Assembly: GCF_036365525.1 (NCBI RefSeq)
Contig: NC_090379.1
Coordinates: forward strand, 28,449,790-28,513,789
Length of the DNA: 64,000 nt
Direction of reading: 5' to 3'
Source of the DNA: Heterodontus francisci
Taxonomy: Eukaryota
How positions within the stretch are numbered: position 1 is the first letter of the stretch; every line of letters starts with the position of its first letter. Position numbers and translations under genes: made by a program. This document shows positions 1-52,869 of this stretch, one piece after another. The notes under the pieces are model-generated. The model did no database searches and was not told the DNA's origin. It worked only from the letters and a program-made list of their open reading frames with translations.

Positions 1-215
1 CAGGTGAAGTCAGCAGGGACACAAGTGGTGACCCTCAGCTCCCACATCCTGCATGAGGAGCATGCAACTGCCCTAGCTTCCATCGCCTCCGCACTAAATT
101 GACAACAGAGATTAAAAAATAAAGGAAAACCTTACCTTACCAAACCCTCCACACAAGAGTCCTTTTTTTTTGGTTAGAGGAGGAGGATGGGTGGGAGACA
201 CTACACGTGTCGGGT
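1..215 (-). mobile_element. CR1 LINE 5' part (5'UTR plus ORF1 zinc-finger N-terminus), running off the window edge
   Basis: Minus strand 83->1 reads MEARAVACSSCRMWELRVTTCVPADFT, homologous to ORF1 of the CR1 at 21283 (VICSSCAMWE). Confidence 0.75.
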
Positions 216-219
216 TTAG

Positions 220-486
220 CCACATTGCTATGAGTCTGGAGACAGATTTCGGCCAGACCAGGTGAGGAAGGCAAATTTCCTTCACTCAAGGGCATCAAGT
301 GAACCAGATGGATTTTTTATGACAATTGAGCTTTTAATTCCAGATTTTTATTAATCAACTGAATTTATTAATTAATTGAATTTAAATTCCACCAGTTGCC
401 ATGGTGGGATTTGAACCCATGTCCGCAGACATTAGCCCGGGTCTTTTGATTACTAGTTCAGTGACATGACACTATGCCACCATCTC
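220..486 (-). mobile_element. tRNA-Thr-like head and 5'UTR of the tRNA-headed LINE/SINE family, 3'-truncated
   Basis: Reverse complement aligns with ~7461-7735; A box, CT-AGT-AA anticodon loop, B box GGTTCAAATCCC. Confidence 0.8.
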
Positions 487-564
487 GAACTACGTTCTGG
501 GAGTACTACACCTTCAGAGGTGTCATCTCTCAGATGAGATCTTAAGTTCAGGCCCCATCTGTTC

Positions 565-975
565 TTTTTTAAAATTCATTCATGGGATTTGGGCATTGTT
601 GGCAGGGTAGTTTTTAATGCCCATCCCTATTTTCCCTTGAGAAGGTGGTGGTGAGCAGCCTTCTTGAACTGCTGCAGTCCATGTGGTGTAGGTACATCCA
701 CAGTGCTGTTATGGAGGGAGTTCCTGGATTGTGACCCAGCAGCAGTGAAAGAATAGCCGATATATTTCTGAGCCAGGATGGTGTGCAACTTCAACAGGAA
801 CTTGCAGATGGTGGTGGTGTTCCCATGTGCCAGCTGCCCTTATTTTTTTAGAAGGGAAGGTACTGTTGAGGAAGTCTTGGCAAGTTGCTGCATTTCACCT
901 TATTGATGGTACACACAGCTACCAGTGTGCATTGGTGGTGGAAGGAGTGAATGTTTAAGGTGGTGGATATTGTGT
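565..975 (-). mobile_element. 3' end fragment of the tRNA-headed LINE family
   Basis: Reverse complement matches ~10340-10744, including the 3' tail region. Confidence 0.75.
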
Positions 976-1019
976 CCATTACCACTTTCTTTGGCTTTGT
1001 ACCTTGAAACCATTTGTCA

Positions 1020-1828
1020 ATGTGGAGAAATGTGGATAAATGTGATGTGATTCAATTTGGTAGGAAAAACTTGGAGAGACAGTATAAAATAAAGGGATAA
1101 CATTCTAAAAGGGGTGTAGGAGCAGAGGGGCCTGGCGGTATATGTGCATAAGTCACTGAAGGTGGCAGGACAGGTTAAGAGAGTGGTTATAAAGCATACA
1201 GTATTCTAGACTTCAGTAATGGAGTACAAGAGCAAGGAGGTTCTGTTGACCTTATATGAGACATGAGTTCAGCCTCAACTGGAGTACTGCAGCCAGTTCT
1301 GGGTGCCACACTTCAGGAAAGATGTGAAGGCATTGGAGAGAGTGCTGAAAAGATTCACGAAAATGGTTCCAAATATGATGAACTTCAGTTATGAGGGTAG
1401 ATTGGAGAAGCTGGGACTGTGTTCCTCAAAGAGAAGCCTGAGAGGAGATTTGATAGAGATATTCAAAATCATGAGGGGTCTGGACAGATAGAGAAAAACT
1501 GTTCCCACTCATGAAAGGATCGAGAACACGAGGCACAGATTTAAAGTAATTGCCCAAAGAAGCAAAAGCGACATGAGGAAAAGATTTTTCATACAGTGAG
1601 TGGTTAAGGTCTGGAATGCACTGCCTGACAGTGTGGTGGAGGCAGGTTCAATTGAAGCATTCAAAAGGAAATTAGACTGTTATCTGAAAAGGAAGAATGT
1701 GCAGGGTTACAGGGAGAAGGCGGGGGAATAGCACGAGATGAATTGCTCATTCAGAGAGCAGTAGGGACATGATGGGCTGAATGACCTCCATATTCTGCGC
1801 TGTAACAATTCTATGGTTCTGTGATTTA
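1020..1828 (+). mobile_element. CR1 LINE 3' fragment
   Basis: ORF2 C-terminal motifs PHFRKDV..LERV..RFT, LRGDLIEIFKI; (ATTCTRTG)-type tail. Confidence 0.85.
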
Positions 1829-2016
1829 ATCTGTCCTGAGGCAGAGAGTGTAAAAATTGGCAAGTCATGCTGCAGCTGTACAGAATTTTAGTTAGGCCAC
1901 ACTTAGAATATTAGATTTTAGATTTAGATTTAGAGATACAGCACTGAAACAGGCCCTTCGGCCCACCAAGTCTGTGCCGACCATGAACCACCCATTTATA
2001 CTAATCCTACACTAAT

Positions 2017-5000
2017 AATTTCCGGACGTCGATGGTGGGCACTGAGGAAATGGCTTATTACCTGCACCAGATTCCACCCCCCTTCCCCCCCCCTTTACCC
2101 CCCTTCCACCCCCCCCACCCCCGTCCCCTTCCCTGCTCCACCCTCTCAGCTCACCCCCTCACAACCCCGTCCCAGCCCGCCCCCCCCTCGCACCATCTTC
2201 ACCCCGCACCCCCTTCCCCTGCACCCCCCCCCCACCCCCTCCCTCTACCCCTCCCCCTTGCATCCCCTCCTCCCACCGGCACCATCCTACACCTGTGTAG
2301 GGGCCCCAACAACCCCACTGCCTTGTGGGCGTCTCGGGAGAGACCAAGGCTAAGGGAGTAAACCCTAACAGAAAATCCGGAGCGGAACCCCGTAGGCGGT
2401 CATGTGTCACCTTTGGCATGTTTCCGGCAGTTCCTGCAGCCATACTGGTGCCAAACGTCGTGTCCTGCACTCCTTTGGACCCCACCAGAAAGGCCGAGAG
2501 GGGGGTTTTGACGACTGGGCAACTCTCAACCTCCATAAATTTGCCCAGGCATGCGCCATGGAGAGGTCACTCCATAGTTGCCTCACAGCGACTGAAACAA
2601 CACGGAAGGCAGCAGTTACGGGTTATAAGTCCAGATAAATTGGCGTAGAAACTGGGCGCCACGGGTTGCCTTTGTCGGTGGGAGAGGTCATTGCACCTCA
2701 CTGGACAGCTACCGCCCGCCTCAAACCGGGCAGCCCCCGGTCAATAAGGTTCTGTCCCGCCACAGTCTGCCTGCTTCAATGGGTGCTTGGAGCTCAGGGT
2801 CATTGCCCGAAAGGTGGACTGATACACCGCACCAAACAACATGAAAAAAGGAAAGAAGGTACCAGCCCTTCGCTTTGCAAGCTGGAACGTCAGAACTATG
2901 TGTCCTGGCCTGTCGGAAGACCTTACACAAATCAACGATTCTCGGAAGACCGCCATCATTAACAACGAGCTCAGTAGACTCAATGTGGACATTGCAGCAC
3001 TTCAGGAGACTCGCCTCCCCGCGAGTGGCTCTCTAGCAGAGCAAGACTACACCTTCTTCTGGCAGGGCAGGGATCCTGAAGAACCAAGACAGCATGGAGT
3101 GGGCTTCGCCATCAGAAACTCCTTGCTCAGCATGATAGAGCCTCCCTCAAATGGCTCGGAACGCATACTGTCCATCCGACTGCTCACCACCTCTGGTCCA
3201 GTACACCTACTCAGCATCTATGCTCCAACACTCTGTTCCGCACCTGAAGCTAAAGACCAGTTCTATGAACAACTCCATAACATCATTAGCAGCATCCCCA
3301 ACACCGAACACCTATTCCTGCTGGGGGACTTTAATGCCAGGGTTGGGGCCGACCATGACTCATGGCCCTCCTGCCTTGGGCGCTATGGCGTTGGAAGGAT
3401 GAATGAGAACGGGCAGAGACTGCTTGAGTTGTGTACCTATCATAACCTCTGCATCACCAACTCGTTCTTTCACACTAAACCCTGTCACCAGGTTTCATGG
3501 AGGCACCCAAGATCACGTCGTTGGCACCAGCTAGACCTCATTGTCACAAGGCGAGCCGCCTTAAACAGTGTTCAAATCACACGCAGCTTCCACAGTGCGG
3601 ACTGTGACACCGACCACTCCCTGGTGTGCAGCAAGGTTAGACTCAGACCAAAGAAGTTGCATCATTCCAAGCAGAAGGGCCACCCGCGCATCAACACGAG
3701 CAGAATTTCTCACCCACAGCTGTTACAAAAATTTCTAAATTCACTTGTAACAGCCCTTCAAAACACTCCCACAGGGGATGCTGAGACCAAGTGGGCCCAC
3801 ATCAGAGACGCCATCTATGAGTCAGCTTTGACCACCTACGGCAAAAGTGCGAAGAGAAATGCAGACTGGTTTCAATCTCATAATGAAGAGCTGGAACCTG
3901 TCATAGCCGCTAAGCGCATTGCACTTTTGAACTACAAGAAAGCCCCCAGCGATTTAACATCCGCAGCACTTAAAGCAGCCAGAAGTACTGCACAAAGAAC
4001 AGCTAGGCGTTGCGCAAACGACTACTGGCAACACCTATGCAGTCATATTCAGCTGGCCTCAGACACCGGAAACATCAGAGGAATGTATGATGGCATGAAG
4101 AGAGCTCTTGGGCCAACCATCAAGAAGATCACCCCCCTCAAATCTAAATCGGGGGACATAATCACTGACCAACGCAAACAGATGGACCGCTGGGTTGAGC
4201 ACTACCTAGAACTGTACTCCAGGGAGAATGCTGTCACTGAGACTGCCCTCAATGCAGCCCAGCCTCTACCAGTCATGGATGAGCTGGACAGACAGCCAAC
4301 CAAATCGGAACTCAGTGATGCCATTGATTCCCTAGCCAGCGGAAAAGCCCCTGGGAAGGACAGCATTACCCCTGAAATAATCAAGAGTGCCAAGCCTGCT
4401 ATACTCTCAGCACTACATGAACTGCTATGCCTGTGCTGGGACGAGGGAGCAGTACCCCAGGACATGCGCGATGCCAATATCATCACCCTCTATAAAAACA
4501 AAGGTGACCGCGGTGACTGCAACAACTACCGTGGAATCTCCCTGCTCAGCATAGTGGGGAAAGTCTTTGCTCGAGTCGCTCTGAACAGGCTCCAGAAGCT
4601 GGCCGAGCGCGTCTACCCTGAGGCACAGTGTGGCTTTCGTGCAGAGAGATCGACTATTGACATGCTGTTCTCCCTTCGTCAGATACAGGAGAAATGCCGT
4701 GAACAACAGATGCCCCTCTACATTGCTTTCATTGATCTCACCAAAGCCTTTGACCTCGTCAGCAGACGTGGTCTCTTCAGACTACTAGAAAAGATCGGAT
4801 GTCCACCAAAGCTACTAAGTATCATCACCTCATTCCATGACAATATGAAAGGCACAATTCAACATGGTGGCTCCTCATCAGAGCCCTTTCCTATCCTGAG
4901 TGGTGTGAAACAGGGCTGTGTTCTCGCACCCACACTTTTTGGGATTTTCTTCTCCCTGCTGCTTTCACATGCGTTCAAATCCTCTGAAGAAGGAATTTTC

Positions 5001-6091
5001 CTCCACACAAGATCAGGGGGCAGGTTGTTCAACCTTGCCCGTCTAAGAGCGAAGTCCAAAGTACGGAAAGTCCTCATCAGAGAACTCCTCTTTGCTGACG
5101 ATGCTGCTTTAACATCTCACACTGAAGAATGCCTGCAGAGTCTCATCGACAGGTTTGCGTCTGCCTGCAATGAATTTGGCCTAACCATCAGCCTCAAGAA
5201 AACGAACATCATGGGGCAGGATGTCAGAAATGCTCCATCCATCAATATTGGCGACCACGCTCTGGAAGTGGTTCAAGAGTTCACCTACCTAGGCTCAACT
5301 ATCACCAGTAACCTGTCTCTAGATGCAGAAATCAACAAGCGCATGGGTAAGGCTTCCACTGCTATGTCCAGAATGGCCAAGAGAGTGTGGGAAAATGGCG
5401 CACTGACACGGAACACAAAAGTCCGAGTGTATCAGGCCTGTGTCCTCAGTACCTTGCTCTACGGCAGCGAGGCCTGGACAACGTATGCCAGCCAAGAGCG
5501 ACGTCTCAATTCATTCCATCTTCGCTGCCTTCGGAGAATACTTGGCATCAGGTGGCAGGACTATATCTCCAACACAGAAGTCCTTGAAGCGGCCAACACC
5601 CCCAGCTTATACACACTACTGAGTCAGCGGCGCTTGAGATGGCTTGGCCATGTGAGCCGCATGGAAGATGGCAGGATCCCCAAAGACACATTGTACAGCG
5701 AGCTCGCCACTGGTATCAGACCCACCGGCCGTCCATGTCTCCGTTATAAAGACGTCTGCAAACGCGACATGAAATCGTGAGACATTGATCACAAGTCGTG
5801 GGAGTCAGTTGCCAGCATTCGCCAGAGCTGGCGGGCAGCCATAAAGACAGGGCTAAATTGTGGCGAGTCGAAGAGACTTAGTAGTTGGCAGGAAAAAAGA
5901 CAGAGGCGCAAGGGGAGAGCCAACTGTGCAACAGCCCCAACAAACAAATTTCTCTGCAGCACCTGTGGAAGAGCCTGTCACTCCAGAATTGGCCTTTATA
6001 GCCACTCCAGGCGCTGCTTCACAAACCACTGACCACCTCCAGGCGCGTATCCATTGTCTCTCGAGATAAGGAGGCCCAAAAGAAAGAAAGA
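2017..6091 (+). mobile_element. Full-length RTE-clade LINE with 8-bp TSD
   Basis: TSD ACACTAAT at 2009-2016 and 6092-6099; ~820-bp 5'UTR; single EN-RT ORF; (AAAG)n tail. Confidence 0.95.
2841..5780 (+). CDS. RTE apurinic endonuclease-reverse transcriptase, 979 aa; after a premature TGA the frame continues to 6032 with a C-terminal zinc finger
   Basis: EN motifs ASWNVRT, ALQETR, LGDFNARVG, TDHSLV; RT motifs QCGFR, FIDLTKAFD, GVKQGCVLAP, LFADD; read-through gives CSTCGRACHSRIGLYSH. Confidence 0.95.
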   Translation: MKKGKKVPALRFASWNVRTMCPGLSEDLTQINDSRKTAIINNELSRLNVDIAALQETRLPASGSLAEQDYTFFWQGRDPEEPRQHGVGFAIRNSLLSMIEPPSNGSERILSIRLLTTSGPVHLLSIYAPTLCSAPEAKDQFYEQLHNIISSIPNTEHLFLLGDFNARVGADHDSWPSCLGRYGVGRMNENGQRLLELCTYHNLCITNSFFHTKPCHQVSWRHPRSRRWHQLDLIVTRRAALNSVQITRSFHSADCDTDHSLVCSKVRLRPKKLHHSKQKGHPRINTSRISHPQLLQKFLNSLVTALQNTPTGDAETKWAHIRDAIYESALTTYGKSAKRNADWFQSHNEELEPVIAAKRIALLNYKKAPSDLTSAALKAARSTAQRTARRCANDYWQHLCSHIQLASDTGNIRGMYDGMKRALGPTIKKITPLKSKSGDIITDQRKQMDRWVEHYLELYSRENAVTETALNAAQPLPVMDELDRQPTKSELSDAIDSLASGKAPGKDSITPEIIKSAKPAILSALHELLCLCWDEGAVPQDMRDANIITLYKNKGDRGDCNNYRGISLLSIVGKVFARVALNRLQKLAERVYPEAQCGFRAERSTIDMLFSLRQIQEKCREQQMPLYIAFIDLTKAFDLVSRRGLFRLLEKIGCPPKLLSIITSFHDNMKGTIQHGGSSSEPFPILSGVKQGCVLAPTLFGIFFSLLLSHAFKSSEEGIFLHTRSGGRLFNLARLRAKSKVRKVLIRELLFADDAALTSHTEECLQSLIDRFASACNEFGLTISLKKTNIMGQDVRNAPSINIGDHALEVVQEFTYLGSTITSNLSLDAEINKRMGKASTAMSRMAKRVWENGALTRNTKVRVYQACVLSTLLYGSEAWTTYASQERRLNSFHLRCLRRILGIRWQDYISNTEVLEAANTPSLYTLLSQRRLRWLGHVSRMEDGRIPKDTLYSELATGIRPTGRPCLRYKDVCKRDMKS

Positions 6092-6779: not shown

Positions 6780-7005
6780 CCCTTCACCCTATCAAAGATC
6801 TTCCCTTTTGTTCTTCTTCCACCTCCCCTCTTTCCCTTGCTGAAAACCAATTATATTTCTAACTTCTGATAGGTGTGATGAAAAGTCACAGACCTGAAAT
6901 GCTAACTCTGTTTTTCTCCCCACAGATGCTGCCTATCCTGCTGAGTATTTCCAGCATTTTCTGTTTTTGTTTCAGAATTCCAGCGTCTGCAGTATTTTAT
7001 ATTTG
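6780..7005 (+). mobile_element. Penelope-like pseudo-LTR fragment with degenerate hammerhead (6871-6907)
   Basis: Matches 26900-27093 and 44700-44890 (GACCTGAAA...CACAGATGCTGCC...CTGCTGAGTATTTCCAGC). Confidence 0.75.
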
Positions 7006-7009
7006 TATT

Positions 7010-7458
7010 TGTCTCTGCCTGTGCCTGAGTGGTCGTCTAAGTCAGGGAGGTGCCGGGGAGGCACCTTCAGAGTCTGCTGCATCATTCCAATAGCAGACTC
7101 CGTAACTGGGCCCTGCTCCACAGATGTTCCCTCTGTCAGCACCCTCATTCTCCTCAGTGACAGCTTCATTCCTTGGCTGGCGCACTGAATAGGAGCACCA
7201 GATGGGGCACAATTGGCATCCCCTCCAAACATCCCTGTGCTATTGGCGCCACTGACCGGTCCATGCTACGTAATGTGCCATGCATCTTTGAACGTCTGTG
7301 CATGCACTCCGAATGCTGTCACATATGGTTCTACATGAGGTTGGCCACTCAGTGGAGGAGCTCATGCGCTTAAAGCCCAGAGCCATTGTGGTGCACGTGA
7401 ACTGAATGGACTCCTCCAACTCAGCCCATGACCCCGCACAGCCTTGGAATTCCGACAT
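7010..7458 (-). mobile_element. Probable Harbinger Myb-like accessory gene fragment
   Basis: ELEESIQFTCTTMALGFKRMSSSTE resembles the helical segment at 36380-36690 inside the larger Harbinger. Confidence 0.4.
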
Positions 7459-7460
7459 GG

Positions 7461-7555
7461 GGGAGGCGGTGGTGTAGTGGTATTGTCATTGTAATAGTAA
7501 CCCAGAGACCCAGGGTATTGCTCTGGGGACATGGGTTCAAATTCCACCACAGCAG
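7461..7555 (+). promoter_or_regulatory. tRNA-Thr-like RNA polymerase III type 2 internal promoter
   Basis: A box TGGTGTAGTGG 7470-7480; B box GGTTCAAATTCC 7534-7545; sister copies show anticodon arm CTGGA-CT-(A/C)GT-AA-TCCAG. Confidence 0.85.
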
Positions 7556-10500
7556 AAGGTGGAATTTGAATTCAATTAATGAATCCGGAATTAAAAGCGA
7601 GTCTAATGATGGCCATGAAACCATTGTCGATTATTGTAAAAACCCATCTGGTTCACTAATGTCCTTTAGGGAAGGAAATCTGCTGTCCTTACCTGGTCTG
7701 GCCTACATGTGACTCCAGACCCACAGCAATATGATTGACTCTTATGTGACGTCTGAAATGGCCTAGCAAGCCACTCAGTTGTACCTAACCGCTACAAGGT
7801 CAAAAAAAAAAGAATGAAACCGGACGGACCACCCGCCATCGACCTAAACACTGGAAATGACAACAGCAAACCCAGCCCTGTCGACCCTGCAAAGTCCTCC
7901 TTACTAACATCTGGGGGCTTGTGCCAAAATTGGGAGAGCTGTCCCACAGACTAGTCAAACAACAGCCTGACATAGTCATCCTCACGGAATCATACCTTGC
8001 AGACAATGTCCCAGGCACTGCCATCACCATCCCCGAGTATGTCCTGTCCCACCGGCAGGACAGACCCAGCATAGGTGGTGGCACAGTGGTATACAGTCAG
8101 GAGGGAGTTGCCCTGGGAGTCCTCAACATCGACTCCGGACCCCATGAAGTCTCATGGCATCAGGTCATACATGGACAAGGATACTTCCTGCTGATTACCA
8201 CCTACTGCCCTCCCTCAGCTAATGAGTCAGTACTCCTCCATGTTGAACACCATTTGGAGGAAGCATCAAAGGTGGCAAGGACACATAATGTATTCTGGGT
8301 ATGGGGACTTCAATGTCCATCACTAAGAGTGGCTCAGTAGCACCACTACTGACTGAGCTGGCTGGGTCCTAAAGGACATAGCTGCTAGACTGGGTATGCA
8401 GCAGGTGGTGAGGGAACCAACAAGAGGGAAAAACATACTTGGCCTCATCCTCACCAATCTGCCTGCCACAGATACATCTGTCCATGAAAGTATTGGTAGG
8501 AGTGACCACCGCACAGTCCTTGTGGAGACGAAGTCCCGCCTTCATATTGAGGATACCATACATCGTGTAGTGTGGCACTACCACCGTGCTACATGGGATA
8601 GATTTCGAACAGATCTAGCAATGCAAAACTGGGCATCCATGAGGCACTGTGGGCCATCAGCAGCAGCAGAATTGTACTCAACCACAATCAGTAATCTCAT
8701 GGCCTGGCATATCCCCCACTCCATCATTACCATAAAGCCAGAAGACCAACACTGGTTCAATGAAGAGTGCAGGAGGGCATGCCAGGAGCAGCATCAGGCA
8801 TACCTCAAAATGAGGTGTCAACCTGGTGAAGCTACAGCACAGGACTACTTGCATGCCAAACTGCGTAAGCAGCATGCGATAGACAGAGCTAAGTGATCCC
8901 ACAACCAACGGATCAGATCTAAACTCTGCAGTCCTGCCACATCCAGCCGTGAATGGTGGTGGACAATTAAACAACTAATTGGAGGAGGTGGCTCCACAAA
9001 TATCCCATCCTCGATGATGGGGGAGAACAGCACATCAGTGTGAAAGATAAGGCTGAAGCATTTGCAACAATCTTCAGCCAGAAGTGCCGAGTTGATGATC
9101 CATCTCGGCCTCCTCCTGAAATCCCCAGTATCACAGATGCCAGACTTCAGCCAATTCCATTCACTCCACGTGATATCAACAAACGACTGAAGGCACTGGA
9201 TACTGCAAAGACTATGGGCCCTGACAATATTCCGGCAATAGTACTGAAGACCTGTGCTCCAGAGCTTGCCACGCCCCTAGCCAAGCTGTTCCAATACAGC
9301 TGCAACACTGGCATCTACCCTGCAATGTGGAAAATTGCCCAGGTATGTCCTGTACACAAAATGAAGGACAAGTCCAATCCAGCCAATTACTGCCACATCA
9401 GTCTACTCTCAATCATCAGCAAAGCGATGGAAGGTGTCATCAACAGTGCCATCAAGCAGCACTTCCTTAACAATAACCTGCTCAGTGATGCTCAGTTTGG
9501 CTTCCGCCAGGGCCACACAGCTCCTGACCTTATTACAGCCTTGGTTCAAACATGGACAGAAGAGCTGAACTCAAGAGGTGAGGTGAGAGTGACTGCCCTT
9601 GATATCAAATAAGCATTTGACTGAGTATGGCATCAAGGAGCCCAAGCAAAACTGGAGTCCATGGGAATCAGGGGAAAAATCTCCGCTGGTTGGAGTCATA
9701 CCTAGCACAAAGGAAGATGGTTGTGATTGTTGGAGGTCAATAATCTCAGTCCCAGGACATCACTGTAGGGGTTCCACAGAGTAATGTCCTAGACCCAACC
9801 ATCTTCAGCTACTTCATCAATGACCTTCCCTCCATCATAAGGTCAGAAGTGGGGATATCTGCTGATGGTGGAATAATGTTCAGTACCATTCACGACTCCT
9901 CTGATACTGAAGCAGCCCATGTCCATATGCAGCAAGACCTGGACAACATCCAGGCTTGGGTTGATAAGTGGCAAGTAACATTCGCGCTATATAAGTGCCA
10001 CGCAATGACCATCTCCAACAAGAGAGAATCTAACCATCCCCCCTTGATGTTCAATGGCTTTACCATCGCTGAATCCCCCACTATCAACATCCTGGGGGTT
10101 ACCATTGACCAGAAACTGTACTGGACCTGCCACATAAATGCTGTGGCTATGAGTGCTGGTCTGAGGCTGGGAATTCTGTGACAAGTAACTCACCTCCAGT
10201 CTCCCTAATGTCTGTCCACCATCTACAAGTCAGGAGTGTGATGGAATACTCTCCACTTTCCTGGATGGGTGCAGCTCCAAAACACTCAAGAAGCTCGACA
10301 CCATCCAGGAGTACGCAGCCCGCTAATTTGGCACCCGATTCATCACAGTCAACATTCACTCCCTCCACCACTTTACGCACAGAGGCAGCAGTGTATACCA
10401 TATACAAGATGTACTGCAGTAACTCACCAAGGCTCCTTCGACAGCACCTTCCAAACCCACAACCTCTACCGCCTAGAAGGACAAGGGCAGCAGAAGCATG

Positions 10501-10744
10501 GGAACACCATCACCTGCAAGTTCCCCTCCAAGCCACCCTGACTTGGAACTATATCGCTGTTCCATCATTGTCACTGGTCAAAATCCTGGAACTCCGTTCC
10601 TAACAGCACTGTTGGTGTACCTACACCCCAAGGACTGCAGCGGTTCATGAAGGCATCTCACCACCATGTTCTCAAGGGCAATTAGGGATGGGTCATAAAT
10701 GCTGGCTTAGCCAGTGATGCCCAAATCCCCCAAATGAAAAAAAA
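7461..10744 (+). mobile_element. Near full-length single-ORF LINE (CR1/L2 group, no ORF1) with a tRNA-derived head; ORF disrupted
   Basis: tRNA-like 5' end; EN motifs TNIWGL, VILTES, GDFNVH, SDHRTV; RT motifs GPDNIP, ANYCHISLLS, QFGFR, ALDIK*AFD; 3' stem-loop and A-rich tail. Confidence 0.9.
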
Positions 10745-11597
10745 GGACACAAAATGGCTGCAAAGAGATATAAACAGGTTAGATGAGTGGACAACAAGCT
10801 GGCAGATGGAGTATAATGTGTGGATATTATTGGCAGAGAGGGAGTGCAATGAAGGTTCACCAGACTTGTTCCCGGGATGGCATGTCTGTCCCATGAAGAG
10901 AGATTGGGGAAACTGGGCCTCTATTCTCTGGAGTTTCAAAGAATGAGAGCTGATCTGATTGAAACCTACAAAATACTTAAAGGGATAGACAGGGTAGATG
11001 CAGCTAAGATGTTTCCCCTGGTTGGGGAGTCTAGAACCAGGTGACACAATTTCAAAATAAGGGGAAAGCCACTTAGGACAGAGATGAGGTGAAATTGCTT
11101 TACTCAGAGGGTTGTGAATCTTTGGAATTCTCTACCCCAGAGGGCTGTGGAAGCTCAGTCACTGAGTATGTTTCAAGCAGAGATTGACAGATTTCCAAAT
11201 ACCAATGACATAAGGGGATATGAGGATAGTGTGGGAAAAAGGCATTGAAATGGATGATCAACCATGATCATATTGAATGGCGGGGTAGGCTTGATGGGCT
11301 GAATGGCCTACTCCTGCTCCTAAGTTCCTAAGTGTGAGGTTTTTCACTTTGGCAGTAAGAATAGAAAAGCGGAATATTTTTGGAAAGACGTGAAACTTCA
11401 AAATGTTGATGTGCAGAGACACTTGGATGTACTCGTACACAGAACACAGAAATTAGCATGCAGGTACAGCAAGCAATTCAGAAGTCAAATGGCATATTGG
11501 CCTTTATTGCAAAGGAATAGGAGAATAAGAACAAAGAAGTCTGCTACAGTTGTATAGGGCTTTGGTGAGACGGCACCTGGAGTACTGTGTGCAGTTT
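10745..11597 (+). mobile_element. CR1 3' fragments (two pieces, internally deleted)
   Basis: LQRDINRLDEW..WQMEYNV; CR1 3'UTR GGCTGAATGGCCTACTCCTGCTCCT. Confidence 0.8.
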
Positions 11598-16892: not shown

Positions 16893-18852
16893 CTTCTTCT
16901 TCTTTGGCCTCCTTGTCTCGGGAGACAATGGGTAAGCACCTGCAGGTGGTCAGTGGTTTGTGGTGCAGCGCCTGGAGTGGCTATAAAGGCCAAAACTAGA
17001 GTGACAGACTCTTCCACAGGTGCTGCAGATAAAATTGGTTGTCAGGGCTGTTTCGCAGTTGGGTCTCTCCTTGCACTTCTATCTTTTTTCCTGCCAACTG
17101 CTAAGTCTCTTCGACTCGCCACACTTGAGCCCCACCTTTATGGCTGCCCACCAGTTCTGGCAATCACTGGCAACTGACTCCCACGGCTTGTGATCAATGT
17201 CACAGGACTTCATGTCGCGTTTGCAGACGTCTTTAAAGCGAAGACATGGACGGCTGGTGGGTCTGATACCAGTGGCGAGCTCGCTGTACAGTGTGTCTTT
17301 GGGGATCCTGCCATCTTCCATGTGGCTCACATGGCCAAGCCATGTCAAGCGCCGCTGACTCAGTAGGGTGTATAAGCGGGGGATGTTGGCCACCTCGAGG
17401 ACTTCTGTGTTGGAGATACGGTCCTGCCACCTGATGCCAAGTATTCTCCGGAGGCAGCGAAGATGGAATGAATTGAGACGTCGATCTTGGCTGACATACG
17501 TTGTCCAGGCCTCGCTGCCATAGAGCAAGGTACTGAGGACACAGGCTTGACACACTCTGACTTTTGTGTTCCGTGTCAGTGCGCCATTTTCCCACACTCT
17601 CTTGACTAGTCTGGACATAGCAGCGGAAGCCTTTCCCATGCACTTGTTGATTTCTGCATCTAGAGACAGGTTACTGGTGATAGTTGAGCCTAGGTAGGTG
17701 AACTCTTGAACCACTTCCAGAGCGTGGTCGCCGATATTGATGGATGGAACATTTCTGATGTCCTGTCCCATGATGTACGTTTTCTTGAGGCTGATGGTTC
17801 GGCCAAATTCGTTGCAGGCAGCCGCAAACCTATTGATGAGACTCTGCAGACACTCTTCAGTGTGAGATGTTAAAGCAGCATCGTCAGCAAAGAGGAGTTC
17901 CCTGATGTGGACTTTCCGTACTTTGGTCTTCGCTCTTAGATGGGCAAGGTTGAACAACCTGCCCCCTGATCTTGTGTGGAGGTAAATTCCTTCTTCTGAA
18001 GACTTGAACGTATGTGAGAGCAGCAGGGAGAAGAAAATCCCAAACAGTGTGGGTGCGAGAACACAGCCCTGTTTCACACCACTCAGGATAGGAAAGGGGT
18101 CTGATGAGTTGCCGCTATGCTGAATTGTGCCTTTCATATTGTCATGGAATGAAGTGATGATGCTTAGTAGCTTTGGTGGACATCCAATCCTTTCTAGTAG
18201 TCTGAAGAGACCATGTCTGCTGACGAGGTCAAAGGCTTTGGTGAGATCAATGAAAGCAATGTAGAGGGGCATCTGTTGTTCGCGGCATTTCTCCTGTATC
18301 TGACGAAGGGAGAACAGCATGTCAATGGTCGATCTCACTGCACGAAAGCCACACTGTGCCTCAGGGTAGACGCGCTCGGTCAGCTTCTGGAGCCTGTTTA
18401 AAGCGACTCGAGCAAAGACTTTCCCCACTATGCTGAGCAGGGAGATTCCACGGTAGTGGTTGCAGTCACCGTGGTCACCTTTGTTTTTATCGAGGGTGAT
18501 GATATTGGCATCGCGCATGTCCTGAGGTATTGACTGCTCCCTCGTCCCAGCACAGGCAAAGCAGTTCATGTAGTGCTTCGAGTATAGCAGGCTTGGCACT
18601 CTTGATTATTTCAGGGGTAATGCTGTCCTTCCCAGGGGCTTTTCCACTGGCTAGAGAATCAATTGCATCACTGAGTTCCGGTTTTGTTGGCTGTACGTCC
18701 AGCTCATCCATGACTGGTAGAGGCTGGGCTGCATTGAGGGCAGTCTCAGTGACAACATTCTCCCTGGAGTACAGTTCTAGGTAGTGCTCAACCCAGCAGT
18801 CCATTTGCTTGCGTTGTTCAGTGATTATGTCCCTTGATTTAGATTTGAGGGG
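16893..18852 (-). mobile_element. RTE LINE, 5'-truncated, same family as 2017-6091
   Basis: 506-aa ORF nearly identical to the RT half of the 979-aa ORF; frameshift near 18530; (AAG)n tail. Confidence 0.93.
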
Positions 18853-35114: not shown

Positions 35115-35400
35115 TGTAATATTACTTGTTCCTTTGATATGTGAAATATTGTAAGAGTCACAGGGCTTCAAGCACTACCCAAAGAAAATATGGGCTTTTA
35201 TTATAACTTAACCAGAACACGTATGTGTGTTCTAGTTACGTTATAATATATGAAACTGCTGCAGGAGCCATAGCAATACACCTCTCACTCTGTCAGGCTA
35301 CACCTACAACTCTCCAGTCATGTCTGACACAACATCACTTCCTTTGGTGATCTTTACTTACAGTTTCTTAAGGTGGGCCTCTTAAGCTCATCCCACAACA
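35115..35400 (-). mobile_element. Solo LTR (286 bp, Gypsy-like) with perfect 5-bp TSD
   Basis: TGT...ACA termini; ATGTG at 35110-35114 and 35401-35405; AATAAA on minus at ~35197. Confidence 0.8.
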
Positions 35401-35454
35401 ATGTGTGCAATGATGACTTAGGCCCCTCTTACCTTGACAGTTATAATTCATCCA

Positions 35455-36375
35455 GTCCTACTCAGGCCCCCTCCCCCAGCTCTTTTTCTGGTACATTGAT
35501 GACTGTATTGGTGCCATTTCCTGCTCTCGCCCTGAACTGGAAAACTTCATCAGCTTTGCTTCCAATTTCCACCCTTCTCTCATCTTTACATGGCCCATCT
35601 CCGACACTTCCCTTCCTCCACTTTTCTGTCTCCATCTTTGGGAATAGACTGTCCACTAATTTTGATTATAAGCCCACTGCCTCCCACAGCTACCTCGAAT
35701 ACACTTGCTCACACCCTACTTCCTGTAAGGGCTCCATTCCATTCTCCCAATTTCTCCATCTCCGACACATCTGTTCTGATGATGCAACCTTCCACAACAG
35801 CGCTTCTGAATATGTCTTCCTTTTTCCTCAACTAAGGATTCCCCCTCCCACTGTGGTTGACAGGACCCTCAACCGTGTCTGGCCCATTTCCCACACTTCT
35901 GTCCTCACCCCTTCCCCTCCCTCCCAGAACCGCGACAGGGTTCCTCCTGTCCTAACTTTCCACCCCACCAGCCTATACATCCAAAGAATCATCCTCCGCC
36001 ATTTCCACCAGCTCCAGTGTGATGTCACCAGCAAACACTTCTTCCCCTCCCCACTGAAGGGATCGTTCCCTCCGCAACACCCTGGTCCACTCCTTCATTA
36101 CCCCCGACACCTCATCCCCTTCCCATGGCATATTCCCATGCAATTTCCCTTTTAGCTCCTCTCTCCTCACCATCCAAGGCGCCAAACATGCCTTTCAGGT
36201 GAAGCAGCGAATTACTTGTACTTCTTTTAATTTAGTATACTGTATTCGCTGCTCACAATGCTGTCTCCTCTACACTGGGGAGACCAAATGCAGATTGGGT
36301 GACTGCTTTGTGGAACACCTCTGTTCAGTCCGAAAGCATGACCCTGAGCTTCGGTTTGCTTGTTATTTCAACAAC
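35455..36375 (+). mobile_element. Penelope-like element RT-thumb plus GIY-YIG endonuclease remnant
   Basis: YKPTASHSYL..HPTSCKGSIPFSQFLHLRHICS; NLVYCIRCSQCCLLYTGETKCRLGDCFVEH. Confidence 0.88.
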
Positions 36376-49171: not shown

Positions 49172-51110
49172 TTTTCTTTCTTTGTTTCATGGGATGTGGG
49201 CATCTCTTGCAAATCCAGCATTTATTGCCTATTCCTAATTGCTCTTGAGAAGATGGTGGTGAGCCGCCTTCTTGAACCGCTGCAGTCCATATGGTCTGGG
49301 TACACCAACGGTGTTGTTAGGGAGTTCCAGGATTTTGATCCAGTGACAGTGAAGGAACGGCAATATATTTCAGAGTCAGGATGGTGTGTGGTTTGGAGGG
49401 GAACTTGCAGGCTGTGGTGTTCCCATATGTCTGCTGCCTTTGTCCTGCCAGGTGGTAGAGGTCGTAGATTTGGAAGGTGCTGTCGAAGGAGGCATGGCGA
49501 GTTGCTGCAGTGCATCTTGTAGATGGTATATACTGCTGACACTGTGTGTCAGTGGTGGAGGGAGTGAATATTTAAGGTGGTGGATGGGGTTGCCAGTCAA
49601 GCAGGCTGCTTTGTCCTGGATGGTGTCAAGCTTCCTGAGTGTTGTTGGAGCCTCACACTTATCCAGGCAAGTGGAGAGTATTCCATCACACTCTTGACTT
49701 GTAGCTTGTAGATGATGGCCAGGCTTTGAGGAGTCAGGAGGTGGGTTACTCGCCAGAGAATTCCCAGCCTCTGACCTGCTCTTGTAGCCACAGTATTTGT
49801 ATGGCTGTTCCAGTTCAGTTTCTGGTCAATGGTAACCCCCAGGGTGTTGATAGTGAGGTATTCAGTGATAGTAATGCTGTTGAATGTCAAGGGGAGATGG
49901 TTAGACTTTCTTTTGTTGGAGATCGTTATTGCCTAGCACTTGTGTGGCACGAATGTTACTTGCCACTTATCAGCCCAAGCCTAAATGTTGTCCATGTATT
50001 GTTGCATATGGAGATCATTATCTGCGGAGTCACGAATGGTGCTGAACATTGTGCAATCTTCAGCGAACATCCCAACTTCTGACCTTATGATGGAGGGAAG
50101 GTCATTGATGAAGCAGCTGAAGATGGTTGCGCCTAGGGCATTACCCTGAGGAACTCCTGCAGTGATGTCCTGGGGCTGAGCTGATTGCCTCCAAAAATCA
50201 CAACCATCTTCCTTTGTGCTAGGTATGACTCCAACCAATGGAGAGGTTTCCCCTGATTCCCATTGACTCCAGCTTTGCTCGGGCACCTTGATGCCATACT
50301 CAGTCAAATGCTGCCTTGATATCACTCTCAGCTCACCTCTTTTGCCCATGTTTGGACAAAGGCTGAAATGAGGTCTGGAGCCGAGTGCCCCCGACGGAGC
50401 CCAAACTGAGCGTCAGTGAGCAGGTTGTTGCTGTTTAAGTGGCAATTGATAGCACTGTCGACGACATCTTCCATCACTTTGCTGATGATCGAGAGTAGAC
50501 TGATAGAGCAGTAATTGTCCGGATTAGATTTGTCCTGCTTTTATGGACAGGACATACCTGGGCAATTTTCCACATAGTCAGGTAGATGCCAGTATTGTAG
50601 CTGTACTGGAACAACGGTTAGGGGTGTGGCTAGTTCTGGAGCACAAGTCTTCAGTATTATTGCCGGAATGTTGTCAGGATCCATTGCCTTTGCAGTATCC
50701 GGTGCCTTCAGCTGTTTCTTGATATCACGTGGAGTGAATAAAATTGGCTGAAGACTGACATCTGTGATGCTGGAGTGCTCAGGAGGAGGCCGAGATTAAT
50801 CATCCTCTTGGCATTGCTGGCTGAAGATTGGCGCAAATGCTTCAGCCGTTTCTTTTGCACTGCTGTGCTGGGCTCCTCCATCATTGAGGTTGGGGATATT
50901 TGTGGAGCCTCATGACTGAATGTGGCAGGACTGTAAAGCTTTGATCTGATCTGTTCGTTGTGGGATCGCCTAGTTCTGTCTATTGCATGCTGCTTCCACT
51001 GCTTGGCATGCAAGTATTCCTGTTCTGTAGCTTCACCAGGTTGACACCTCATTTTTAGGTCCTGGCATGCTCTCCTGCACTTTTTATTAATGGTACTGGT
51101 AGAGTGAGGA
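49172..51110 (-). mobile_element. Second, 5'-truncated and deleted copy of the tRNA-headed LINE family
   Basis: Reverse complement aligns with ~8700-10744. Confidence 0.88.
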
Positions 51111-51119
51111 ACAGGCAAG

Positions 51120-51511
51120 TTTTTTAAATTATTTCATGGGATGTGTTCGCCATTGACAAGGCCAGCATTTGTTGCCATCCCTAATTGCACTTGAACTCTT
51201 GAACCTGTGAGGCCATTTCAGAGGGCAGCTAAGAGTCAACCACATCGCTGTGGGTCTGGAGTCAATGTAGGCCAGACCAGGTAAGGATGACAGATTTCAT
51301 TCCCTAACTGAACCAGATGGGTTTTTGCAACAATCGATGATAGTTTCATGGCATCATTACTGATCCTAGCTTTCAAATCCAGATTTTTATAAGTGAATTG
51401 AATTTAAATTCCGCCAGCTGCCGTGATGAGATTTGAACCTGTGTCCCCAGGACATTAGCCTGGACCTCTGGATTACGAGTCCAGTGACATTACCACTGTG
51501 CCCCCATCTCC
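51120..51511 (-). mobile_element. SINE made of the tRNA-headed LINE's 5' ~300 bp joined to its 3' tail
   Basis: Sense strand GGAGATGGGGGCACAGTGGTAATGTCACTGGACTCGTAATCCAG... matches 7461-7765, then CAATTAGGGATGG..AAATGCTGGCCTT..CACATCCC matches 10675-10744. Confidence 0.88.
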
Positions 51512-52869
51512 TCTCCCATGAGGTATCACCAAATGTGCCAACCCAACCCATGTTACGGACTCCTGTGTCAAAATGAAGCAGGTTCAGGACAGGCATTTCT
51601 CTTTTTCCTCCTCCTCCTCTGGTACATTCCCCACAATTTTTGCCCCACCCATTCAGCATTCCCATAATCACCATGCATCATTCTTTCCCTGAAAGATAGG
51701 ACAATTTCTAGGTGTGAGGTATGTAGCTGCATCAATCGTTCAGCACAGTGTTAACTTGCAACAAAATCTTGCCTGTTCTCTGTTAAGCTGCATCAGTAAG
51801 GGTAAGGTGGTGCAAATGACCTGGAATCCAAAAAGTAAAGCTAGTCGGTGATCATGGTGTGTGGCAATTTTGGAGCACATTTTAACCACAGAAGAATGTC
51901 TCCCAAAACAGCAGTGTCAAAGCTATTGGCTAACATCAATAAACATATGGAAGGCTCCAATAAACAATTACCCCTTAATTTCTGTATAATGAATTATTTC
52001 TAAGTCATTATTGCTTTATGAAACCAGCATGGATTATTATTTTCCTGTTTCTCCTTCAGTTCAATAAATGTTTACACTTACTTTGTTGCCCAAGAACCAA
52101 CAGCTACTGAAAATGTCCACTGAACTTAGGAGCTCAAGTATCATTTTGTACACTGTTTTCCTGCACATGGATTCACCCTGCTGGTCGGATCTTCCAATAC
52201 TAACAATATCGGGTGTCACCCATTGCTCACTAGTAGCTGTCTTGCCACTGAGTTAGAAGGTTGTGGGTTCAAGTTCTGCTCCAGAGACTTGAGCACATAA
52301 TCCAGATAGACACTTCAGTACAGTACTCAGGGAGTGCTGCACTGTTGGAGGTGCTGTCTTTTGGATGAGACATTCACTAATGTAAAAGATCCTATGGCAA
52401 TACTCGAAGAAGACAAGAGAGTTCTACCCAAATTCATTGGGCTGAGCCCTTCCTAGAGAGGGGACGCAAGTCCTCCTCTCTTGCAAGATAAATTAATTTA
52501 AGCTGCCAATCTAATCTTTCATCCATGTGGGTTTATAGTACAAAACTGTTTATAAATTGGGACTAATTGGGTAAACGCTCTTGGTGCACATTATCGCTAC
52601 TAATTCCAACGGAGCAAAGTCATTTCTTTCAGCATCCTTAAAAGACAAAGGAAGCTTTCTAATTAGTCATCTGTTTAAACCTTCTATCAAAGCTCCACCA
52701 TGATCATTCTCGCATTACACAGTAGAATTAGTATTCACTGTGGATTTAAAACATTTTAACATGTTCAGTCATTGTTTTTGCCTCATTTATATTCTACATG
52801 AGTTTTTCAATCTGTCTTGCCTGTTCTGCTATTACCACCACCTGACTTTTGTTATATTTTAATTGATTT

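Follow-up and report, generated by a model that had tools for sequence, protein, structure and literature searches.

The element at positions 7461-10744 of the window, the 64,000-nucleotide stretch of Heterodontus francisci DNA analysed here, belongs to a LINE family that is abundant in sharks and rays and has been published, but whose anatomy is undescribed. We propose that this family is an autonomous Zenon LINE with a single ORF, and that RNA polymerase III (Pol III) likely transcribed it, a reading that we infer from sequence and hold to be probable though far from certain. The initial annotation had suggested a protein-coding retroposon transcribed by Pol III and selected against terminators; a fixed tRNA-like head, a T-specific loss of TTT and a selected ORF support this in part, but the absence of TTTT taken by itself is borderline.

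Anatomy of the window copy

Comparisons are made with the family majority, the column majority of 27 near-full copies (3289 nt), which contains one stop-free EN+RT frame of 975 codons and no ORF1. The features of the window copy are as follows.

7461..10744 (+): full-length though decayed member of the elasmobranch Zenon LINEs; across element positions 1-3288 it is 91.5% identical to the majority
7461..7555 (+): tRNA-like head with the layout of a type-2 Pol III promoter; copies begin here within a few bases
7470..7480 (+): A box, TGGTGTAGTGG, the commonest form (30 copies); the next two forms are CpG-decay variants
7534..7545 (+): B box, GGTTCAAATTCC; the commonest form in the family is GGTTCGAATCC (22 copies)
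7556..7782 (+): conserved non-coding body, also present in a short SINE form whose majority is 89% identical to element positions 1-323
7767..10685 (+): single EN+RT frame, broken in this copy and 975 codons long in the majority, with the stop codon TAG at 10683-10685
7814..7816 (+): conserved out-of-frame ATG (68 of 73 copies); the 46-codon frame that begins with it overlaps the EN frame at its start
10669..10744 (+): 3' tail common to the SINE (element 3219-3289 against the SINE tail, 66/71), with a predicted stem-loop and then an A-run at 10737-10744

The window copy is dead: 12 indels and 10 in-frame stops set it apart from the family majority, and its Pfam matches to EN and RT fall in broken pieces. 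Its head had been described as tRNA-Thr-like with no ORF1 behind it. Both boxes lie where they had been placed, but the Thr identity is only weakly assigned: ARAGORN at default settings and Rfam found no tRNA in the window, and a tRNA-Thr(agt) with an atypical long arm appeared on the majority head at a lowered ARAGORN threshold only, overlapping an equally weak call on the opposite strand. No ORF1 fits between head and EN, and frames starting upstream reach at most 46 codons; this lack is not special to the family, because all Zenon elements are described as being without ORF1 (PMC13343379). The 5' two thirds of the window copy are near the young majority and its 3' part (10000-10744) groups with an older subfamily, a mosaic appearance seen in many copies of the family.

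The head as a fixed part of the family

The 6.0-Gb genome was searched with a query made of the head and the EN start, which gave 8309 candidates; in all 40 that were scored the match spans from the head to the EN start. The same 3' end is reached by 33 of the 39 other fetched head-anchored loci, and sequence similarity drops abruptly at the head's first base. Because this sample is biased by its own query, copies were sampled again from the 3' end (two draws, 78 loci, 76 usable; L281 and L300 were left out). Nine of the 76 start at element position 12 or before, three within the head or body (one of them at the edge of the fetched stretch), and 64 further downstream, eight between 331 and 900 and 56 beyond. 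This is the distribution of ordinary LINE 5' truncation with one full-length form. The head is thus no chance neighbour of a single copy, as the 40 scored matches and the nine 3'-anchored starts show, and full-length copies do begin at it, all nine within 12 bases of its first base.

No shared alternative 5' end was found in the upstream flanks of 16 truncated copies, where common pieces were mostly CR1. A query made from an older copy gave 40 matches, and 18 of the 20 fetched start at position 1-5; full-length copies 86-88% identical to the majority (L311, L325, L328) also bear the head. Two near-identical copies with the same flanks lie about 21 kb apart on one contig (L055, L056) and are probably a segmental duplication. 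Among the full-length copies compared there is no consistent target-site duplication; in the CR1 group such duplications are often short or absent.

The coding frame and its selection

The natural long frames of two copies (L049, L047) match PF00078 (E 6e-35) and PF14529 (E 1e-13). The longest natural frame has 732 codons, and none of the fetched copies has a whole intact frame; in a stingray family, 3 of 612 copies are reported to have an intact ORF2 (PMC13343379). Copies end in A-runs, that is, the family has a poly-A tail. Variants were analysed in 137 copies; L056, a near duplicate of L055, was left out, as were L281, fetched on the wrong side, and one short fragment from the window. Those shared by many copies comprise 94 synonymous and 71 replacement changes, whereas private variants comprise 733 synonymous and 2666 replacement changes and 161 stops, a shared/private ratio of about 0.21; the old and young majorities differ by 68 synonymous and 32 replacement codon differences. 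The contrast between shared and private variants argues that source elements used their protein, and judged by these substitutions the EN+RT ORF is under purifying selection in the source lineage.

Loss of T-runs

The initial annotation had noted that the sense strand of 7461-10744 lacks runs of four or more T and is rich in A-runs, and the count agrees: there are no runs of at least four T, 11 runs of exactly three T and 14 runs of at least four A. Against mononucleotide shuffles the absence is significant (5.9 expected, P=0.001), but, TT itself being rare in this copy, it loses significance against dinucleotide shuffles (2.1 expected, P=0.106). The surrounding T4-free stretch of the plus strand, 6999-11339, is the longest in the window (4341 nt; the next has 1519) and overruns the element by about 460 nt on the 5' side and about 600 nt on the 3' side. 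Neighbouring CR1 and RTE elements do hold sense TTTT, as had been stated: two RTE copies have 4 and 3 runs of four or more T, and three CR1 copies have 8, 9 and 4.

The family majority contains no TTTT and seven TTT in 3289 nt. Permutation of its own codons makes the absence of T4 by itself borderline (0 against 2.0 expected, P=0.08-0.09), whereas runs of at least three T in the ORF number 4 against 12.8 expected, a value reached in 0 of 2000 own-codon permutations with codon usage fixed. All four are Phe TTT codons. At codon junctions TTT is absent where 9.9 are expected (0 of 10,000 codon-preserving shuffles), while AAA, CCC and GGG stand at a normal level there. TTT is the most depleted non-CpG triplet, with only four CpG-containing triplets lower, and codon use points the same way, TTA serving for 0 of 92 Leu and TTT for 4 of 18 Phe. 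The T-run frequency of the majority is not an ordinary one, since there is no T4 and the loss of TTT survives codon-preserving shuffles and is absent from the controls: runs of at least three T are at 34 against 34.8 expected in CR1 and at 23 against 24.4 in RTE, the latter control being the single RTE frame of the window. AATAAA is not depleted in the family.

The shortest Pol III terminators are described as TTTT and T(A/C/G)TTT, and TTT alone is said to terminate Pol III poorly (PMC8466645). The T signal must therefore be read as near-terminator avoidance, because it rests on TTT, itself a poor terminator. T(A/C/G)TTT is absent from the ORF where 2.6 are expected (P=0.043), although it is also lowish in the RTE control (3 against 6.5, P=0.066). 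Among individual near-full copies, 37 of 61 are without T4, and the mean is 0.5 T4 against 13.7 A4. New T4 arises in 0 of 58 shared and 19 of 1307 private variants, and new T3 in 3 of 58 and 144 of 1307, numbers too few for power. A TTTT at position 205 of the low-depth older-lineage majority is noise, as this column reads C in 63 of 70 copies and T in 3. Runs of at least four T stand just before the A tail at 14 of 80 LINE ends and 4 of 15 SINE ends (L031-L337); we did not count these as a Pol III signature, because such runs are described as growing with age (PMC8466645).

The SINE form and other elements of the window

The window contains further pieces of the family.

51120..51520 (-): complete SINE of about 390 bp (L169), the LINE head and body joined directly to the LINE tail, with its own tail and A-run
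49181..51088 (-): 5'-truncated copy of an older subfamily, 83.4% identical to element 1298-3284, with two sense T4 runs; groups with older copies
216..968 (-): old remnant of a LINE 3' part (574-956) and, after it, a head-like piece (216-481); the two are 77.8% and 74.5% identical to the majority

The initial annotation had seen an older copy at 49172-51110. This is not one element with a head of its own: the head at 51520-51120 belongs to a separate SINE lying beside a 5'-truncated LINE. The two sense T4 runs reported for the older copy are indeed at 50193 and 50740.

Of 29 other matches to the SINE locus, 26 have element 1-323 fused straight to 3219-3289, and not one extends into the ORF. 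The SINE majority is close to the two LINE ends (89% for the head, 66/71 for the tail). The SINE is most simply seen as an internal-deletion derivative of the LINE that keeps promoter and tail; the order may also have been the reverse, the LINE capturing the 5' part of this SINE. An identification of this SINE with SINE2-1_CM was withdrawn, as the latter is a CORE-SINE with an L2 tail. A likeness of the body to the Deu domain was likewise not borne out, comparison by eye with the Deu, Meta and UCON3 alignments in the supplement of PMC7245038 giving no match.

Among the unrelated elements, the RTE LINE at 2823-5780 (+) has an unbroken 985-codon EN+RT frame and so is probably young; a 93% copy of it lies at 16897-18852 (-). 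A 275-codon frame at 35328-36155 (+) has a putative resemblance to the C-terminal part of a Penelope-like retroelement protein.

Relation to published elements

Whether the family had already been described was left open by the initial annotation. The family of 7461-10744 is, by sequence comparison, the elasmobranch Zenon of Stuart et al. 2026 (PMC13343379): the first 400 nt per row are near-identical by eye, and two of three short motifs occur in the published rows, the third lying beyond the 400 nt compared. The paper describes elasmobranch Zenon from five species (CarCar, HypSab, RhiTyp, ScyCan, SquAca), without ORF1 and with a poly-A tail; its rows have the same head, body and ATG region as the family described here, and five of seven are 3.24-3.31 kb long. 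By eye, all seven shark and ray rows begin with the head and have no TTTT in the first 400 nt, whereas in the supplement two hagfish rows and one coelacanth row are without the head and contain runs of four or more T. The main text, like the preprint, nowhere uses 'tRNA' or 'polymerase III', and the head, the T-run loss, the missing start codon and the derived SINE are undescribed in what it reports.

The Zenon-like LINEs of hagfish, coelacanth (CR1-5_LCh) and invertebrates likewise have a single EN+RT frame, with proteins up to about 40% identical, but they have ordinary T-runs, and no tRNA-type head is present in the three published rows. Protein homologues at about 40% identity are numerous. 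The DNA of 80 relatives was fetched, of which 73 with frames of at least 350 codons were kept and 7 dropped for short frames. Their lowest observed/expected ratio for T3 is 0.72 (n=73), compared with 0.31 in the shark family, and T4 is absent in 1 of 73. A B box was found upstream in 0 of 73, many of which have little upstream DNA, and low-threshold ARAGORN gave noise only; deep conservation of the head is thus not seen in these 73 relatives. As far as these sequences tell, the T-run loss is lineage-specific and goes with the head. A distant relative (L278:54-2789, 29% identity) has no sense T4 against 5.4 expected, on a contig without upstream DNA.

The layout of an A/B-box head, conserved body, LINE tail and AATAAA by the A tail is shared with tRNA-derived SINEs (SINE2), such as the T+ SINEs B2, Dip and Ves described in PMC8466645. 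In contrast to these, the shark LINE is 3.3 kb long and protein-coding and its majority tail has no built-in terminator; the T-runs before the A-run in 14 of 80 LINE copies may be later decay. Short and non-coding, as a SINE2 is, applies to the form of about 390 bp (26/29 loci) and not to the 3.3-kb LINE. Persaeus, an internal-deletion derivative of lepidopteran Zenon, is likewise a short element made from Zenon 5' and 3' ends, but it is described as being without tRNA homology or a Pol III promoter (PMC6740152), whereas the shark derivative is built like a true SINE. SacSINE1 (Deu; PMC5499810) and SINE2-1_CM (CORE; PMC3747384) are also tRNA-headed SINEs of cartilaginous fish; by their descriptions they use L2-type tails, unlike the shark Zenon SINE. 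Our search of published articles turned up no Pol III-transcribed coding LINE. Some Ingi/I elements of sea hare and amphioxus in Repbase may carry tRNA-like heads, and these would be a precedent.

Proposed transcription by RNA polymerase III

On the reading that we prefer, the A and B boxes would be bound by TFIIIC, Pol III would start about 10 nt before the A box and could cross 3.3 kb because TTTT and T(A/C/G)TTT have been purged, and, as the majority tail lacks a terminator, it would stop at a T-run in the flanking DNA. Of the terminators that a Pol III type-2 unit should not contain, there are 0 TTTT in 3289 nt and 0 T(A/C/G)TTT in the ORF. The encoded protein would bind the RNA from which it was made at the 3' stem-loop and integrate that RNA through target-primed reverse transcription, and the SINE would be an internal-deletion product retaining promoter and tail. 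Assembled contigs from four runs, one of them on record as RNA, cover all 30 element bins and include SINE-type joints, although such contigs are blind to transcript start, cap, strand and level.

The strongest of the other explanations, which we nevertheless regard as unlikely, is an ordinary Pol II LINE that captured the 5' end of a SINE, so that the head is carried along or has turned into a Pol II promoter, and U-runs are shunned for some other reason, for example RNA decay, export or A-tail pairing. In its favour, PMC5786205 describes LINEs as being transcribed by Pol II and template switching as a known way for chimeras to arise, translation would be easier with a cap, and the loss of T4 alone is borderline. 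However, the A and B boxes are kept across five shark and ray species, T4 runs are kept in CR1 and RTE of the same genome and in 72 of 73 relatives, nine upstream ATGs fit cap-dependent scanning badly (an argument made in PMC3894237), and AATAAA, as noted, is not depleted.

Distinctly less probable is a division of labour, with Pol III making the full-length RNA that is copied and the protein coming in trans from capped Pol II read-through transcripts, whether of the copy itself or of others. Such an arrangement would account for the precise 5' ends, for the loss of T-runs and for an uncapped RNA that shows no obvious start, and the enzyme clearly acts in trans on the SINE. Purifying selection along the source lineage is, however, most easily explained when source copies each produce the protein that they use, and a capped read-through RNA still meets the upstream ATGs and the missing in-frame start. 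Least credible of all is that the tRNA-like fold is a processing signal at which host read-through RNA is cut 5', e.g. by RNase P, in the manner of the ribozymes of R2, RTE and Ingi: the precise 5' ends would suit it, as would the self-cleavage that is described at the 5' ends of LINEs from six clades (PMC5786205), but the fold is poor, the copies begin 5 nt upstream of the predicted acceptor stem, and T-run loss over 3 kb is left unaccounted for.

The start of translation

The weak step of the Pol III reading is the route of translation: the RNA would be uncapped, the head and body hold 9 upstream ATGs, and the first in-frame ATG of the EN+RT frame is codon 284. The protein would thus have to be started by an unusual route, and our preferred guess, which we rank above a non-AUG start, is entry at the out-of-frame ATG at 7814 and then a frameshift onto the EN frame. 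This ATG lies 86 nt from the EN-start motif, i.e. out of frame, in 46 of 73 copies, and by eye an equivalent is present in 6 of 7 published shark and ray rows; in one row, a shorter one, it seems to share the frame of the endonuclease, which may be an artefact of the consensus. The linker before it varies, with 31 nt in three species rows and 27 and 30 in two others (by eye), and a variable linker in front of a conserved ATG therefore favours frameshift entry at 7814 over an upstream UUG. A UUG start at the end of the body, although its frame is open in the H. francisci family, is disfavoured by this variation in length and by a stop right after TTG in one species row (by eye). A structured IRES is unsupported in the two regions tested, which fold no better than shuffles (z=-0.59 and 0.06, the latter for the body, 7556-7782). 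Deletions of at least 4 nt just after the conserved ATG (7814-7900) occur in 15 of 75 copies, compared with 2-11 in eleven other 85-nt windows, and their breakpoints differ.

Implications

By the working rule, LINEs are Pol II transcribed and protein-coding and SINEs are Pol III transcribed and non-coding (PMC5786205). Pol III itself is regarded as serving short, non-coding RNAs only. If the Pol III reading is true, a selected ORF of 975 codons behind A and B boxes, with codon junctions shaped by the avoidance of terminators, would amount to a vertebrate mRNA made naturally by Pol III. The family also provides a compact element of 3.3 kb with one ORF for study, a single substrate on which to ask if cells can translate a long Pol III transcript and if simple deletion can turn a LINE that already bears the promoter into a SINE.
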